DNA from: Kofleriaceae bacterium
GTDB lineage: Bacteria > Myxococcota_A > Polyangia > Haliangiales > Haliangiaceae
Assembly (NCBI GenBank): GCA_046597055.1
Contig: JBKJLC010000268.1
Coordinates: forward strand, 1-49,313
Length of the DNA stretch: 49,313 nucleotides
Reading direction: 5' to 3'
Of this stretch, positions 146-7,498 are shown piece after piece. Position 1 is the first letter of the stretch, and the number at the start of each line of letters is the position of its first letter. A program made the position numbers and the translations under genes. Below the pieces are notes generated by a model. It made no database searches. It had not been told where the DNA came from and saw nothing but the letters and a program-made list of their open reading frames with translations.

Positions 146-3100
146 TCAGTTGCTGAGAAACAGGCTTGAAAAGGCCATGAGAGAGCGGCGGCCCCAGAGA
201 ATTCCACGAACGCCGCAGATGCCAAAAATGTCGTCTGTCATGAAACGGGCGCAGAGCAGATCTGCATCATGAACTTGGATGGTGGCTATCCGAAAATCTT
301 CTAGGTCGAACACCATAACCTCGCCGGCGCTGACTGCGATAGCATAGCGTCCGCTCGGAGACTGTGAGATGTCTGCAATGCGCGTGTCTGACTTGAATTC
401 GTAGTCACGGAGGGGTGTGTGCAGCCAGAGCGAGAATCCCTTGCTCGCTAACCAGGTGTCACGGTGGACGACGAACTCTCGTAGAGGTCCGGACGCTTGA
501 GTGACAGCTAGCGGACGCAGGTCACGGCTCCAGTGGACCATCGTGGCGTCCGAGCTCGATGTGCGCAAACCATTGGCAGACCAATCCAGCGCGAAGATGA
601 AGCCTCGATGCACGCGGGATGTGTTCATCGAACGATCAGTCAGGCCGAACGTTGACAGCACGCCTTCTTGGTCTGTCGATGCGATGGAGCGGGCGTCCGG
701 GCTAAACACCAGCCGGTACGGCTCGGAGGCATGCTTATATAGGAGCGTCCGGCGGATACCGTCATAGGACCAAACCGAGCCATCGCTTACCAGATACGCC
801 AGCAACTCCCCATCGGGTGGGCTCGCGGACCAAGGTATCGGCTCCTTGTGTTTTGCGACGATCTCCGTGCGATGAGTATTCGTGTCGGTGCAGATCAACT
901 GGCCGTCCCATCCGCCAGAACAAACCCTCGAGCCAAGCCAAGACGGTTTGAAGGACAGGTCTTGATGCTTATGTAGGTGAACGATCTCATCCGCGAAAGG
1001 TTCTACTAGAGACACCGACCCGTCACGGCAGTCGACCGCAGCCGCGCCGCCCGTGGTTCTCGCCACGATGTTGAAGGGCGTGCAGTTCATGGGAAGCGTA
1101 GAGAGGCCGAGACCCGGACGAAGGCGCCAGCGGCGGATCTCCGGCCCGCCGACCGAGGTCAGCGTGCCCGTGGCACTATCGATGAGGACGAAAGCTACGA
1201 GCCCGCGGTGGCCAATGAACGTCCACACCGAATTCGTCTCGGTGTCGACGACGTGAATGGTGCCGTCAGTGTATCCCCAGGCCGCGATGCTACCGTCCGT
1301 GGCAACGCTAGTAGCCATCACGTCTGATGGTGGTCCAGAAACCGCAGCACCGGCTCCTGGCATGACTAGCCACGGCTGCCCGCGACTATCGACCGCGGCT
1401 ACGAGTCCGGAGCTGGACATTGACAGTTGATAGTCGTCGGTGGTCACGAAGTCCACGGTGCGCTTGCCGCGGCCGTGGCTAATGATCATGTTCTTATCGT
1501 TGCGCAGTGCGACGTAGTCCTCCCCCGAGGTCGCTAGATTGGATGGCATACCGTTATGTTTGCAGCGTCCCAACTGGCGACGAGGCTCACGCAAGGTCTC
1601 GAGATGCCCACCCACCGTGCAGAGTAGGAGGTCGCTTGCGCCGAGTGTCGCCATCCCGCGAACGCCGTCGCGCAGTTGGAGTGCCGCGCCCATTTTCGTT
1701 GAATGGAGACGCCCAGCCTGATCGAGAAGTAAGACGTCATCATCGATTGCAGCAGAGTACTGGGGGAACTGCGGCAACGAGCTCAGGTCGACGCTGGGCC
1801 CAACTGCGGGAGTGCGTTGCAGGCGCGGGCCGTCATCCGTGTTCTGACCGTAGACCCACGCGCCCTGCGCGCGGATCGTCGGGCTGGGTTCCATCAGTCT
1901 CGTGGCGATTACCTGCGTCGTACCATCATCAAGGTTCGCGAGATGGAGACGCCGGTCCGAGGTGCTCACGAGTACGTGAGGTGAACCACGCGTGGACTGT
2001 AGGTCTATGACGATGTAGGGCGAGTACGATAGGATTGAGTGTGCGGTGCCCGAACCATTCACTCGACTCTCGATCGTATCCCGCTCCGCCGAGGGGTTGA
2101 TGCGGTTGGAATCGAGCAGCGTCTTTGCGAGGGTGGGATCCTTCGCGAGCAGCAGTGCCGCTTCCGATATCAGGGCATGGTCGCGCTCTTGCTCTGCAGT
2201 TGCGCGTGCGGACCGCTCACGCTGCTGGGAAAATTCGGCCTTGATTTGCGCATCTCGGGCGCGGTCTCGCTCGTTCAGGATGGTCGCGATCGACCACGAT
2301 GCGGCGATGAAGGCGACAACCGATATGGCGAGGCTGATGATGGCCGCGCGGCGATGACGTCGCAGCCAATGCTCGAGCAGGGCGAAGAGGGAGTAGTGGC
2401 GCGACAGGATGCGCGCCCCGGCAGCGAACGCGTGCAGGTCGACACTGAGTGCGCGTGCGTCGGTGTGGCGGGCCTCGGATTGCTCGGCAGTAGCTTTGAC
2501 GACGATGGCAACTAGATCGGTCTCGATGCGGTTGGCACGCATCGTTTTGACGGCGTGCCGCACGTGGTCTCGATGAAGAGCCGCTCCAGTGCAGAGTTGG
2601 TAAAGCATCGCGCCGATGGCGTAGACGTCGGCGCGTTCGTCCACTGGCTCGCCTCGGGCTTGCTCGGGCGACATGTAGGCGGGGGTGCCGAGGATGGTGC
2701 CGGCGACGGTGACGCCGTCGTCGGCGGGGGCTTTGCGGTACGGGCCGTCGGGGGTCGGGTCGCCGGCGGGGTCGTCGGGGCCGGCTGCGATGTCCTTGGC
2801 GAGGCCCCAGTCGATGACGACGGTCTCGCCGAACTCGCCCACGATGACGTTCGAGGGCTTGAGGTCACGGTGGATGATCTTGTGGTCGTGGGCGTAGGCG
2901 ATCGCGTCGGCGACGGCGATGACGTTGGGGAGGAGGGCGAGGCGGTCCTCGAGGGTCTTGCAGTCGTCGATGAGCTCCTTCAGGGGGCGCCCGGCGACAA
3001 GCTTCATGGCGTAGAACGGGGTGCCGTCGGGCCAGCGGCCCGCCTCGTGGATCGGGACGATGCCGGGGTGCTCGAGGCGCGCGGTGATGAGGGCTTCGCG

Positions 3101-3733
3101 GAAGAAGCGGAGCTCGCTGGAGGTGCCGCGGTGAAGGAGTTCCTTGAGGGCGACGTCGCGACCGAGCTCCTTGTCGCGGGCGCGGTAGACGCGGCCCAGG
3201 CCGCCGCGGCCGTGCTCGGCGACGATCTGGTAGCGCTGGGGGTCGCGGTACTGGAGGGGTGCGGGGAGGCGCTCGAGGGGCGGGCGCGAGGTGAGCGGGG
3301 ATGGTGAGTCGGAGTCGTTGCTGTCGCGAGTGCGGGTGCGGGTGGGGTCGTCGTTGCCGGCGCGGCGGGGTGCGGGTGGCGAGGCAGCAGCGGCGGCGGG
3401 CGACCCGGCAGCGGCAGGCGCGGGCGACCGGGCGGCGGCGGGCGCCTGGGCAGCGACGGCGGGCGACCCGGCAGCAGCGGCCGCGGGCGACCCGGCCGCA
3501 GCGGCGGCGGGCGACCCGGCAGCATCGGCGGGTGGCGTCCCTGCGGGCGGGGTGGCTGGCAGTGGTACGGCCGCGCCGGATTCGTCGGACGAGGGGCTGG
3601 TCAGCTGGCTGTCTTCGCGACCCGAGGGACCTACACCGTGCGACACGACGAGCGGCGAATACGGCATGTCGGTCGGCGACGCAAGACCTATCGCCGACGG
3701 GTCGGCGGATGGGTTCTCGTCGGCAACTTTCAT
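146..3733 (-). CDS. Membrane Ser/Thr (Hanks-type) kinase with Pro/Ala-rich N-terminus, TM helix, coiled coil and C-terminal WD40-like propellers
   Basis: Motifs [66 protein letters not shown]-like repeats (GHRGLV, SGGWDG). Start moved from 3814 to ATG 3733 because a sigma54 promoter lies at 3749-3764. Confidence 0.92.
3385..3530 (-). repeat. Imperfect coding tandem repeat (about 24 bp, GSPAAAAA units) in the kinase N-terminus
   Basis: GGCGACCCGGC recurs four times plus a degenerate copy; protein reads [25 protein letters not shown]...[19 protein letters not shown]. Confidence 0.85.
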
Positions 3734-3748
3734 GGCGAGCGGCGCATC

Positions 3749-3764
3749 AGCACGCAGCGTGCCA
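3749..3764 (-). promoter_or_regulatory. Sigma54 (-24/-12) promoter for the kinase operon
   Basis: Minus strand TGGCACGCTGCGTGCT = TGGCACG-N4-GTGC with exact GG-N10-GC spacing; predicted TSS near 3738, just before ATG 3733. Confidence 0.75.
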
Positions 3765-3827
3765 GCGGCGGAGGCGGCGGAACCGCGCGGAGTTCCGTCC
3801 TGGGAGGCAGTCATGCGGGCTGTGTCG

Positions 3828-3931
3828 GTGTTCCGATACAGCGGTTGCGTGTTCCGGTGCGGTCAGGTGCGTGAATGTGCGGGGCGGCGTCGGAACACAT
3901 CGAGTGTTCCGGTGGTGTTCCGATCGTTCCG
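3828..3931. promoter_or_regulatory. Array of GTGTTCCG sites, candidate upstream activator sequences
   Basis: GTGTTCCG at 3828, 3849, 3904, 3915; inverted CGGAACAC at 3891 (palindrome CGGAACAC-atcga-GTGTTCCG, 3891-3911); partial GTTCCG at 3926. Start-to-start spacings of 21 and 11 bp. Confidence 0.7.
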
Positions 3932-4060
3932 ATCCGAGGCGGCGAGGGGGGGGATGTGTGAGGTGGGGGACAGGAATCGCAGGTCCATTCGTGGCAAGGG
4001 CTGGAACCGGGGCTCAAGGAGCGGATCGGAGCTGGTGCGGGTCGTGCTAATGGTCGCGAG

Positions 4061-5293
4061 ATGTCATGGCAGTGCCTCCTCGAGGGTGAGCTGAAGCAGC
4101 GGGCGATCGAGACCGCGGACGAGATCATCGCGGCGATCGCGGCCAGGCCGGACGGGACCGGTGCCCTGGACGGGGCCGGGGGGCATGCGTGCCTGATGGT
4201 GTACGCGGTGCACGCCGGGCGCGACGAGGCGCTGGCGGAGCGCGCGGCGGCGATGCTCGATGCGATGGTGACCGGGGTGAGCGAGGGGGGTGGGCGCGGG
4301 GCGCTGTGGGGCGGGCTGGCCGGGGCGCGGTTCACGGTGGCGCACCTGGCGGGTGGCGACGAGGCGGGTGAGGCGCTGCTGGCGATGGACGCGGCGCTGC
4401 TGACGATGCTCGCCGTGCCCGCCTGGGACCAGGATTACGACCTGATCGGTGGGCTGTGCGGGTTCGGGGTCGCGGCGCTCGAGGGCGGCGGCGAGGCCGA
4501 GCGGATCGCGGTGCGGGTGCTGGACCATCTGGAGGCGACGGCGCGGCACGAGCCGGAGGGCACGGCCTGGTACACGGCACCGGAGCTACTGCCGGAGTGG
4601 CAGCGTGCGGTGTGCCCCGATGGCTACTTCAATCTCGGGCTCGCGCACGGGATTCCCGGGGTGATCGGGTTCCTCGCGAAGCTGCTGGATGCGGGGGTCG
4701 AGGTGGAGCGGGCGCGGGTGCTGCTCGAGGGCGCCGTGCGCTGGATGTTGACGGTGGCGCCGGCGCGCGAGGGGGGCCGGTTCCCAGCGTGGCGCGGGCG
4801 GGGCGCGAACGACGAGCCGTCGCGGTTGGCCTGGTGTTACGGCGACCCGGGCGTGGCGGTGCCGCTGCTGGCGGCCGCGCGCGCGACCCGCAATGACCTG
4901 TGGGAAGCGCAGGCGATGGAGATCGCGCACGGGATGGCCGCGCGGCCGATGGCCACGAGTGGCGTGGCCGACATGGGCATCTGCCATGGTGCGGCCGGGG
5001 TCGCGCACATCTTCAATCGGCTGTACCAGGCGACTGGCGACGAGGTGCTGGGCGACGCGGCCCGGGCGTGGATCGAGCAACTGCTGGCGATGCGGCGGCC
5101 CGGCGAGGCGGTCGCCGGCTTTCCGTCGATGACGCGCGAGGAGGGCCGCGATATCTGGCAGGAGGATGCCGGGCTGCTGATGGGCGCGACCGGCGTCGGG
5201 CTGGTGCTGCTGGCCGCGACGTCGGAGATCGAGCCGGCCTGGGATCGCGCGCTGCTGTGCGAGATCGCGCCACCGGCGGACGCGCAGCCGTGA
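4061..5293 (+). CDS. lanC: Lanthionine synthetase C (class I LanC-type cyclase)
   Basis: DLIGG, NLGLAHGIPG, RLAWCYGDPG and GICHGAAG motifs; catalytic His and Cys/Cys-His zinc ligands are intact. Confidence 0.92.
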   Translation: MSWQCLLEGELKQRAIETADEIIAAIAARPDGTGALDGAGGHACLMVYAVHAGRDEALAERAAAMLDAMVTGVSEGGGRGALWGGLAGARFTVAHLAGGDEAGEALLAMDAALLTMLAVPAWDQDYDLIGGLCGFGVAALEGGGEAERIAVRVLDHLEATARHEPEGTAWYTAPELLPEWQRAVCPDGYFNLGLAHGIPGVIGFLAKLLDAGVEVERARVLLEGAVRWMLTVAPAREGGRFPAWRGRGANDEPSRLAWCYGDPGVAVPLLAAARATRNDLWEAQAMEIAHGMAARPMATSGVADMGICHGAAGVAHIFNRLYQATGDEVLGDAARAWIEQLLAMRRPGEAVAGFPSMTREEGRDIWQEDAGLLMGATGVGLVLLAATSEIEPAWDRALLCEIAPPADAQP

Positions 5294-5330: not shown

Positions 5331-6728
5331 GTGACCGTCACGGACCTGACGCGGACGGTCAGCCACAGCGAGGACGAGGACGCGGCCGGCGGGGCCGGGG
5401 CCGAGCAGCCGCGGCTGGTGGTGGTGCTGGAGTGCCGGCAGCCGACGGCGCCGGCGCTGCGGGTGTCGCTGGCCGGGGTCGACCAGGTGACGCTCGGGCG
5501 CGGGCCGGTCCGGACGTGGACGCGCACGCGCGATCGGATGGACCTGGCGATTGGCGATCACGAGATGTCGCGCCAGCACGCGCGGCTGCAGCGCGGCGCC
5601 AGCGGGTGGGAGATTGTCGATCTCGGCTCGAAGAATGGCACGCTGGTCAATGGCGAGGTCGTGGTGAGGAGCGTGCTCGCCGATGGTGACGTCGTCGAGG
5701 TCGGCACCACCCTGCTGATGTTCCGCGAGGACCCCGGGCCCGGCGGCGAGGTGGTCGACCGTGATCTGGCGACCGAGGCCGCCACGCCGGCGGCGTTCCG
5801 CTCGCTGGCGCTGGAGCTCGAGGCCCGGATTGCCGATCTGATGAAGATCGCGCCGTCGCCGGTGCCGGTGCTGGTGCGCGGTGACACCGGCACGGGCAAG
5901 GAGCTGGTCGCGCGCGCCATCCACGACCGGTCGGGTCGGCGCGGGGCGTTCGTCGCGCTCAACTGCGGGGCCTTGCCGCGCACGCTGATCGAGAGCGAGC
6001 TATTTGGCTACCGGCGCGGCGCGTTCTCGGGCGCCAAGGAGGACCGCGAGGGCCTGGTCCGGCGGGCCGACGGCGGCACGCTGTTCCTCGACGAGATCGC
6101 CGAGCTGCCCGAGGAGTCGCAGGTCGCGCTGCTGCGGGTGCTGCAGGAGGGCGAGGTCCGGCCGATCGGCGCCAGCCAGGCGGTCAGCGTCGACGTGCGC
6201 GTGGTCGCGGCCACCCATCAGGATCTGCCGCGCCGGATCGTGGACGGACGGTTCCGTCAGGATCTGTACGCGCGCCTGGCCGGCTTCGAGATGACACTGC
6301 CGGCGCTGCGCGAGCGGCGCGAGGATCTGGGCACGGTGATCGCGTCGCTGTTGCCACGGCTGGAGGCGCTGGTGCCGGATCCGGCGCAGATCAGCTTTCA
6401 CCGGCAGGCCGCGCGGGCGCTGCTCGCGTATGCGTACCCGCTCAACGTGCGCGAGCTGGAGCAGGCGCTGCGCACGGCCGCGGTGCTGGCCGACGGCAAG
6501 GAGATCCGCGTCGAGCACCTGCCCGAGGCGATCCGGACCTACTCGCCGGCGGCGCCCGCGAGCGGGCTGCGGCCCGAGGACCGGGTGCTGCGCGAGCGGC
6601 TGGTCGAGGTGCTGCGCGCGCACGGCGGCAACGTGGCCGCCGCGGCGCGGGTGATGAGCAAGGCGCCGATCCAGCTGCGGCGCTGGTGCCGCCGGCTCGG
6701 GGTCGACCTGGCGGCGTTCCGCGGGTGA
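5331..6728 (+). CDS. FHA-domain sigma54-dependent enhancer-binding protein (FHA-AAA+-HTH)
   Basis: FHA motifs LGRG, MSRQH, SKNGT; Walker [21 protein letters not shown]; Walker [17 protein letters not shown]; Fis-type [12 protein letters not shown]. Confidence 0.95.
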
Positions 6729-6894: not shown

Positions 6895-7062
6895 GTGAAC
6901 GCGATCGCCCCCGAGGTCGACCCCACGCTGATCGCGGAGATGCTCCGGCTCACGCCCGAGCAGCGGGTCGACCAGAACGACCAGATGCTCGCGATGATCG
7001 AGGAGCTGCGCCGTGGGCTCGCCCCAGCTCAAGAGCCTGCTGACGACGCTCGCCGCGGCTGA
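6895..7062 (+). CDS. 55-aa protein absent from the ORF track; probable partner/antitoxin of the nucleotidyltransferase-like gene
   Basis: GTG..TGA encodes MNAIAPEVDPTLIAEMLRLTPEQRVDQNDQMLAMIEELRRGLAPAQEPADDARRG; strong GC3 bias; TAGGGT 6 nt upstream; overlaps the next gene. Confidence 0.8.
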   Translation: MNAIAPEVDPTLIAEMLRLTPEQRVDQNDQMLAMIEELRRGLAPAQEPADDARRG

Positions 7063-7498
7063 GATCGAGCTCGTGCTGGTCGGCGGTCTCGCCGCCGTTG
7101 CGCAAGGAGCCCCGATCACGACGTTCGACGTCGACATCGTGCATCACCGCACGCCGGAGAACGTGGCGCGGCTGATCGCGGTGCTCACCACGATCGACGC
7201 GCGCTACCGTGGCCGCCCCGCCGGCGAGATCCTGCGGCCGACCGCCGCAATCCTGGCCGGACCGGGACACTCGCTGCTGATGACCGCCATGGGCCCCCTC
7301 GACGTCCTGGGCGCGATCGAGGGCGGACGCGACTACATGTCGCTGCTACCGGACACTGTGGTCAGCCGGTTCGGCGCGCACGAGGTGCGCATCCTCGCCC
7401 TGCCCGTCCTGGTCGAGCTGAAGCGGCATTCGACGCGGCCCAAGGACCAGCACATGCTGGCCGTCCTCCAGGAGACGCTGCGCCAGCAGCGGGGGTGA
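7013..7498 (+). CDS. Pol-beta-superfamily nucleotidyltransferase-like protein (candidate toxin)
   Basis: LVGGLA...TFDVD (hGG plus DxD) and C-terminal LVELKR..RPKD helix. Confidence 0.75.
   Translation: MGSPQLKSLLTTLAAAEIELVLVGGLAAVAQGAPITTFDVDIVHHRTPENVARLIAVLTTIDARYRGRPAGEILRPTAAILAGPGHSLLMTAMGPLDVLGAIEGGRDYMSLLPDTVVSRFGAHEVRILALPVLVELKRHSTRPKDQHMLAVLQETLRQQRG

Follow-up and report, generated by a model that had tools for sequence, protein, structure and literature searches.

Peptide-pheromone circuits and kinase-WD40 receptors

In the nisin and subtilin systems (NisK-NisR) and the streptococcal ComCDE and Blp systems, a lanthipeptide or double-glycine (GG)-leader peptide induces its own gene cluster through a cognate membrane kinase. 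The pherotype alleles of ComCDE and Blp pair each peptide with its receptor. The present study concerns a gene on the minus strand (positions 146-3733) of a 49,313-nucleotide stretch of a Kofleriaceae genome (GenBank assembly GCA_046597055.1, contig JBKJLC010000268.1), referred to at its full length as the window. The gene encodes a mosaic membrane Ser/Thr kinase, consisting of a conserved, high-GC front and a variable, low-GC end that comprises the kinase C-lobe, a transmembrane (TM) helix, and a double-WD40 region. Judging from sequence, we lean slightly towards the view that it belongs to an agr-like autoinducing lanthipeptide circuit, in which a eukaryote-type kinase would serve as the receptor and the sensor-plus-peptide module would be exchanged by recombination. 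The nisin and ComCDE systems rely on a histidine kinase and a response regulator, whereas the present locus carries a Ser/Thr kinase and an FHA-domain sigma54 activator.

In the Brassica S-locus, the ectodomain of a receptor Ser/Thr kinase and a Cys-containing peptide ligand are linked and highly polymorphic; ectodomain and ligand chemistry are unrelated to those considered here, and the likeness is an analogy only. FHA-domain sigma54 enhancer-binding proteins are known from Myxococcus, reportedly described by Jelsbak in 2005. FHA-sigma54 activators are thought to take their input from Ser/Thr kinases, and we know of no peptide ligand or polymorphic receptor for those of Myxococcus. Myxobacteria and planctomycetes harbor many membrane Ser/Thr kinases with WD40 ectodomains. 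To our knowledge, none of these kinases has an identified ligand. The kinase-TM-WD40 proteins of Planctomycetota and myxobacteria are described as having a cytoplasmic kinase, a single TM helix, and a periplasmic WD40 array (PMC11032199). The available part of that source names no ligand, whereas a candidate ligand gene is linked to the kinase here.

In agr, a variable agrBDC block recombines against a conserved agrA, according to the accessible text of PMC8768832. The initial annotation had likened the locus to the agr specificity groups, and the comparison fits: lanthipeptide-type precursors and divergent promoters with a shared repeat array were found. Both systems have a modified secreted peptide, a linked membrane sensor kinase, and two regulator-driven promoters (predicted in the present case), and here too a variable block of peptide and sensor is unlinked from a conserved regulator. 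The components differ. A Pkinase domain with a double WD40 ectodomain takes the place of the histidine kinase AgrC, and an FHA-sigma54 protein that of AgrA. No AgrB was found among 30 neighbor proteins scanned; LanB, LanC, and a C39 exporter occur instead, in a Gram-negative host. There are four agr groups, whereas dozens of alleles at 20-30% identity exist here, with several copies per genome. Having no histidine kinase, response regulator, or AgrB, the locus falls outside the agr class proper. The parallel drawn with polymorphic toxin tips was not sustained, in that a TM helix and a WD40 propeller make up the variable tip, and the small gene encodes a precursor and no immunity protein.

Class I lanthipeptide clusters with LxLxKx5L/double-glycine leaders and C39 proteases are reported from Bacteroidetes in the portion of PMC7268733 available. 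LanC, a GG-ending leader, a C39 protease-exporter, and, in some of the loci, LanB are shared with these clusters (NF038153); a linked receptor kinase, an activator, and a mosaic cassette go unmentioned in that portion. Of the hallmarks of a class I lanthipeptide system, LanC lies in the window, and the precursor leader and core and the C39 exporter were found in relatives. A literature search, with subscription journals mostly outside its scope and supplements excluded, returned no description of this combination. The system would be a variant of peptide-pheromone signaling with unusual hardware.

Composition and ancestry of the kinase gene

According to the ORF list, Pfam, and Kyte-Doolittle hydropathy, the product of the longest open reading frame (ORF; 146-3814, minus strand) begins with a leader rich in Pro and Ala, which is followed by a Ser/Thr kinase, a single TM helix, and an extended beta region. 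Because a sigma54-type motif occupies 3749-3764, the start codon is placed at 3733 or later instead of 3814. The kinase domain (2405-3247, minus; Pfam Pkinase, amino acids (aa) 195-430, E 1e-32) has intact motifs in the alignment. The single TM helix (2288-2344, minus; aa 491-509) has RRHRR in front of it and a mean Kyte-Doolittle value of 2.23, against 1.39 for the runner-up segment. It is followed by a charged stalk, likely a coiled coil, and a helical hairpin (2045-2287, minus), whose DP motif is invariant across 33 aligned rows. The remainder (146-2044, minus) is a hypervariable tandem WD40 beta-propeller of low GC content at third codon positions (GC3), which is the predicted periplasmic sensor. 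AlphaFold models the C-terminal 675 residues as three helices and then a long all-beta region (pLDDT 92, pTM 0.86), and Foldseek matches the propeller model to tandem-WD40 proteins such as Utp21, Apaf-1, and Gemin5 at TM-scores of about 0.33-0.38. The positive residues ahead of the sole TM helix suggest that the propeller lies outside the cytoplasm, as is also predicted for the kinase-WD40 proteins of planctomycetes in the available part of PMC11032199.

A composition switch inside the kinase gene had been noted in the initial annotation, and its spot counts of G and C (29/60 at 961-1020, 39/60 at 1321-1380, and 43/60 at 3061-3120) are exact on recount. Counted from aa 191 with Met and Trp codons excluded, GC3 is 0.958 over 190 codons and 0.682 over the following 806. 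A change point at aa 385 (window 2662) fits best, with a 2-log-likelihood interval of aa 379-387 (window 2680-2656) and a log-likelihood ratio of 39; the highest value among 300 permutations was 12. GC3 shifts in one step and not along a gradient, as it stays between 0.50 and 0.87 in 30-codon segments throughout aa 391-1200. The switch interval (2656-2680, minus), the inferred crossover zone, lies at the YMSPE motif of kinase subdomain VIII, and DNA similarity to the nearest relatives stops near window 2600. Among the 93 kinase ORFs of the genome with at least 250 codons beyond the YMxPE motif, the window gene is the only one in which GC3 drops by more than 0.15 (0.27; next 0.11; median 0.014). 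The step is therefore not the usual contrast between catalytic domain and tail. A genome-wide set of low-GC3 ORFs was discarded, since it consisted mostly of antisense frames.

Conservation changes within the same gene. Compared with relatives, aa 190-410 are 75-90% identical and the propeller 23-31%, with intermediate values for LanC (49-59%) and the activator (60-70%); an aconitase-like control gene is 78-86% identical in five of these genomes. The kinase front is conserved and high in GC3, and the C-lobe groups with the variable part in the identity profile. The closest relative of the propeller end among 7999 scored candidates is 32% identical. Tandem copies at one locus (L043) share about 99% DNA identity over 150 codons and about 40% thereafter. 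Fronts are at least 91.5% identical in 22 pairs drawn from 53 genes, which share members and are not independent; 19 of these pairs lose identity inside the kinase and two near the TM helix, leaving L131/L138 as the sole pair that is collinear to the end, at 83-98% throughout.

The propeller tree contains two deep clades, and each front-end clade holds members of both. In the approximately unbiased (AU) test, the propeller clade of the window is rejected by the front data (p 1e-12, 37 rows) and its front clade by the propeller data (p 3e-42, 33 rows); both tests were run on quick trees, with five long-branch rows dropped from the propeller set and L049 left out of the front tree. Alignment of relatives for a breakpoint and separate trees for the two halves were among the checks that the initial annotation had proposed. 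Both agree with its claim of a mosaic formed by recombination, in which the halves differ in conservation, their trees are incongruent, and 21 of the 22 pairs with near-identical fronts have unrelated propellers. A fixed crossover at subdomain VIII is not supported. In the front clade that includes the window gene, 10 of 12 members switch at -33 to +40 codons relative to YMxPE; two partial genes do so at -37 and +52 codons, and others at +73 to +230 or later, some of them beyond the TM helix. An orphan search limited to the propeller type of the window gave five matches in 19 loci, each of them preceded by a kinase domain in the same orientation.

Low-GC3 propellers are scattered in the family, with eight state changes on a 33-row tree. 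Some stand beside high-GC relatives, such as L117 (0.67), which is 54% identical to L058 (0.94), and some copies (L076, L117) are low in GC over the whole gene. Because of this scatter and the whole-gene low-GC copies, repeated AT drift in the family's own accessory pool would explain the low GC3 better than one foreign donor. An extreme case (L112:830-3592) has a GC3 of 0.89 in the front and 0.45 in the C-part, at a DNA GC content of 46-48%.

An alternative history, which we consider unlikely, holds that old paralogous sensor-peptide ends diverged in place under diversifying selection and drifted to AT while gene conversion repeatedly homogenized the kinase front alone, so that the GC step is the edge of a conversion tract. 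This account concerns history only and is compatible with a signaling role. It accommodates the common fronts of tandem and same-genome copies, the long branches of low-GC propellers (rho 0.56 between GC3 and nearest-relative identity), and a bias of the front towards C at fourfold sites (window 2798-3247 and homologues), which reaches 0.73-0.97 in 10 of 11 clade members tested, compared with about 0.52 in high-GC3 genes of the window genome. Against this history stands the agreement between front and resident activator gene, whose identities are correlated over 10 loci (rho 0.83, p 3e-4); the correlation of the activator with propeller identity is weak (rho 0.32, p 0.02). The closest pair of loci, in which L107 and L061 are counted as one organism given their identical promoters, is also hard to reconcile with conversion of the front alone. 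DNA identity of 78-80% runs through lanB, lanC, promoter, and front, ends in kinase subdomain IX, and weakly resumes at a downstream esterase-like gene. The activators of this pair are 85% and the fronts 99% identical, yet the propellers share 27% and the peptides are unrelated. A role of GC-biased gene conversion in bacterial GC content is itself disputed, as far as the available part of 10.1101/2024.05.31.596828 goes.

Linked precursors and the candidate signaling circuit

Of 33 complete kinase genes, 23 are followed by a precursor gene (about 50-80 aa) that begins no more than 250 nt away, and in six of the 23 its start overlaps the kinase stop (gap -3). The leaders follow an LxLxRxTxRxL...GG pattern, and NF038153, the class I lanthipeptide leader family, was matched by five of ten tested leaders, one of them above the cut-off. 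All 23 cores contain Cys and Ser/Thr, and the cores are mutually unrelated. The GC3 of the precursors tracks that of the propellers (rho 0.72, p 1e-4) and not that of the fronts (rho 0.15), in line with the earlier proposal that sensor and peptide gene moved together.

The modification and export machinery accompanies the kinase in some related loci. With the kinase front as query, 65 loci were recovered from genomes and 20 from metagenomes, and the nearer ones bear the titles Kofleriaceae, Myxococcales, or Deltaproteobacteria. Of 138 genomes in the family to which the window belongs, 22 encode the kinase family under a strict cut-off, with up to eight copies per genome. The FHA-sigma54 activator subfamily is present in 21 of the 138, and 19 of these are among the 22 kinase genomes. 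LanB occurs in 20 of the 22 kinase genomes, compared with 47 of the 116 others; in this background, G088 and G089 carry an unpublished flag. A Pfam scan of 30 selected neighbor proteins identified LanB, LanC, a C39-ABC exporter, GAF-HlyD, and HlyD, and, downstream, erythromycin-esterase-like and M1 or S41 peptidase genes. LanB was found in five of 57 fetched loci, many of which are short; both of its domains (PF04738 and PF14028) are present in L017, L021, and L029, and a C39-ABC exporter with HlyD in L016, L017, and L021. In the window, lanC (4061-5293, plus strand; LANC_like PF05147, E 5e-39, above cut-off) is followed by the FHA-domain sigma54 enhancer-binding activator (5331-6728, plus; FHA E 1e-14, Sigma54_activat E 1e-61).

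The kinase gene and lanC diverge from a common control region. A -24/-12 motif faces the kinase (3749-3764, minus; aligned in six of seven loci) and another faces lanC (4033-4048, plus); both are of sigma54 type. An unstranded array of GGAACA/TGTTCC sites (3829-3921) with a perfect palindrome at 3892-3910 lies between them and is a candidate enhancer, likely bound by the activator. At least four GGAACA sites within 160 bp occur at a single place in the 8.4 Mb assembly, which is this array. The divergent motifs and the array are all visible in a seven-locus alignment. No sigma70 promoter or terminator was found in 3600-4100.

From the observed architecture, mosaicism, precursor linkage, LanB/LanC/C39 context in relatives, activator co-occurrence, and promoter motifs with their array, a circuit can be proposed. 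The precursor would be dehydrated and cyclized by LanB and LanC, and a C39 exporter would cleave it at the GG-type site and secrete the peptide. The periplasmic propeller pair of the linked kinase would bind its own peptide, upon which the kinase may autophosphorylate on Thr and the FHA domain of the activator may bind the phosphorylated kinase. Acting on the GGAACA array, the activator would drive both sigma54 promoters and raise kinase, peptide, and modifying enzymes in a positive loop. Recombination in the conserved front likely re-pairs the circuit with new sensor-peptide modules. In the window copy, the linked peptide gene is broken by an IS66 insertion. A bolder version, which we put forward tentatively as less than an even prospect, is that each Kofleriaceae lineage holds private lanthipeptide-WD40-kinase pairs, re-paired on a common front and sharing one FHA-sigma54 readout, for self-specific quorum sensing or kin recognition.

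Several observations weigh against this circuit or its proposed history. Many family members show no GC3 switch at all. No same-species allele pair was found, which leaves the strain-specific exchange and kin recognition suggested by the initial annotation unsupported. Front fourfold sites between the window and seven relatives are near random expectation, and for this reason the window's own swap cannot be dated. They exceed it in L107/L042 (74/90; expected 0.66) and L045/L091 (75/87; expected 0.72); the C-parts of both pairs are no more alike than expected by chance. The linkage is incomplete, with ten of the 33 complete genes, including the nearest relative (L106), having no precursor within 250 nt. 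The covariation of peptide and sensor expected by the initial annotation holds for GC3 and fails for sequence: core and propeller distances over 23 loci give a Mantel r of 0.07 (p 0.13), and none of the Mantel tests that compared cores or leaders with propellers or fronts reached significance (p 0.05-0.43). Propellers 50-60% alike can bear unrelated cores. The one case of a common core is L084 and L065, with propellers 71% identical and a shared CPTGSWP core, and it may reflect plain co-inheritance. Arrays of at least four GGAACA sites are limited to 12 of 51 related kinases, and the upstream stretches scanned for lanB (C42) and the exporter (C245) contain neither a GGAACA site nor a sigma54 motif. 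The window genome has a single lanB, on contig C42 and not beside lanC, and exporters on C245 and C190, so that LanB and the C245 exporter are on other contigs than the kinase. LanB is widespread regardless of the kinase family (the 47 of 116 genomes above), and related genomes are non-independent samples. Binding, phosphorylation, and induction are predictions of the model.

The same hypervariable, Cys/Ser/Thr-rich cores would also be expected if the peptides were mainly weapons, that is, lantibiotics against neighbors or prey, with the kinase as a self-protection or danger sensor and an arms race driving diversity. The patchy distribution with up to eight copies per genome and the frequent downstream erythromycin-esterase-like, M1, and S41 peptidase genes are consistent with this explanation, to which we assign a rather small probability. 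However, neither a small immunity lipoprotein nor a toxin domain could be recognized in the annotated loci, many of the cores contain just one Cys and lack a cationic character, and the window genome retains an intact sensor despite the loss of its linked peptide.

It is still less probable, and we think it distinctly improbable, that the kinase answers some other outside cue or aids precursor modification, the peptide link being one of operon convenience. The absence of core-propeller sequence covariation agrees with such a role. Kinase-TM-WD40 is a common general architecture in the text of PMC11032199 at hand, and kinase domains modify precursors in class III/IV synthetases, as noted in the accessible part of PMC7268733. 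Arguing the other way are the agreement of peptide and propeller GC3, the frequent overlap of precursor start and kinase stop, the supply of dehydration by LanB, and the fact that other kinases of the window genome are not mosaic. The possibility that two kinase genes were fused during assembly at a motif they share can be dismissed almost entirely. The genome is metagenome-assembled (94% complete, 7.6% contamination), and numerous contigs of unrelated kinases stack up at the motif, but contigs from three public runs (one study, possibly the source sample, hence not independent) cross 2662 with zero differing letters (pieces 2356-2852, 1958-2852, and 1657-2854) and the same switch recurs in independently assembled loci. 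The GC3 step is not an assembly join. Contigs from these runs also span the IS66 junction at 115/116.

If the lanthipeptide circuit operates as proposed, it would provide the first named ligand class for bacterial kinase-WD40 receptors, with eukaryote-style signaling chemistry. It would represent peptide quorum sensing via Thr phosphorylation and FHA recognition, not a two-component relay, in a Gram-negative social group, and would give a signaling role to a large uncharacterized set of class I lanthipeptides. It would also be a second polymorphic identity system beside TraA/SitAI, as that system appears in the available part of PMC12288465. Some two dozen receptor-peptide pairs occur naturally in the family, together with an activator and an enhancer-bearing promoter, both predicted, and ligand specificity is therefore directly testable with reporters.

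The interrupted precursor and further observations

The small gene that the initial annotation placed next to the kinase kept its precursor-type position and lost its extent. A 14-nt stub remains (116-129, minus; MQKK and two bases), cut by IS66 in codon 5, and everything beyond is IS66. A GGAG ribosome-binding motif (139-142, minus) stands 9 nt ahead of the ATG, and position and start resemble the precursors behind the 23 complete relatives. The IS66 left end (1-115, minus), with terminal repeat and start of the transposase frame, runs to the contig end and matches both C282:1882-1996 and the first part of C139 at 100% identity. Contig C282 carries a whole copy, whose ORF matches DDE_Tnp_IS66 (PF03050, E 1e-35) and both ends of which start with the same 12 bases as terminal inverted repeats. 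Because IS66 interrupts the linked precursor gene, the window copy lacks its own linked signal; it would listen without one, unless an unlinked precursor serves.

The rest of the precursor is absent from the assembly, as the matching flank is on no contig, and a leader HMM run over contig ends matched the intact C299 peptide alone and not the window remainder. The right-end flank on C119 was considered as the partner of the window and rejected, as it matches C139 instead (7/8 bases). A 31-aa frame at 1-93 was likewise rejected as a gene, having no Pfam match and being an out-of-frame reading of IS66. On C119 of the same genome (G000), positions 59600-62590 hold a low-GC (about 0.6) run of short genes between inverted-repeat elements, similar in appearance to integron attC sites, that ends at an IS66 right end.

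Intact unlinked precursors are present in G000 at C65:14765-14929, C231:8599-8772, C178:1238-1441, C299:495-713, and C190:11332-11520. Weaker candidates are found at C190:11387-11740, C88:6392-6616, and C219:7632-7772, and a sigma54-like motif precedes the unlinked precursors on C65, C190, and C88. The same genome encodes two further kinases of the family: one copy, next to an FHA activator, is truncated and low in GC3 (C199:14849-17623), and the other is complete and has an exporter nearby (C190:336-3803).

In the relatives, precursors with the CPTGSWP core form arrays behind one kinase, with five tandem genes in L065:12571-14116 and three in L084:13196-14211; the kinase frame of L065 is interrupted. 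A complex prediction for the L084 propeller and the last 30 residues of the unmodified precursor scored 0.00, gave no answer, and was not used. One open frame with LanC and GAF-HlyD domains in L019:26-3124 is a possible fusion. Erythromycin-esterase-like genes follow the peptide gene in L017:17012-18913, L018:1-1659, L024:17035-18336, and L027:8259-10070. These genes are often low in GC and sometimes tandem, and their products are possible processing or signal-degrading enzymes.

Within the kinase C-lobe (window 2500-2630), the distance from the DVYAIG helix to the DLxAI motif is short and variable. It measures 19-40 aa in most members and 48 in two more distant kinases, which suggests a reduced substrate-docking region. 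The low-complexity N-terminal leader contains tandem AAAAGSP-coding repeats (window 3372-3532). Beyond the activator, window 6895-7498 holds a 55-aa ORF and then a 161-aa ORF with no Pfam match; we take the latter to resemble a nucleotidyltransferase and the pair to be possibly of toxin-antitoxin type.

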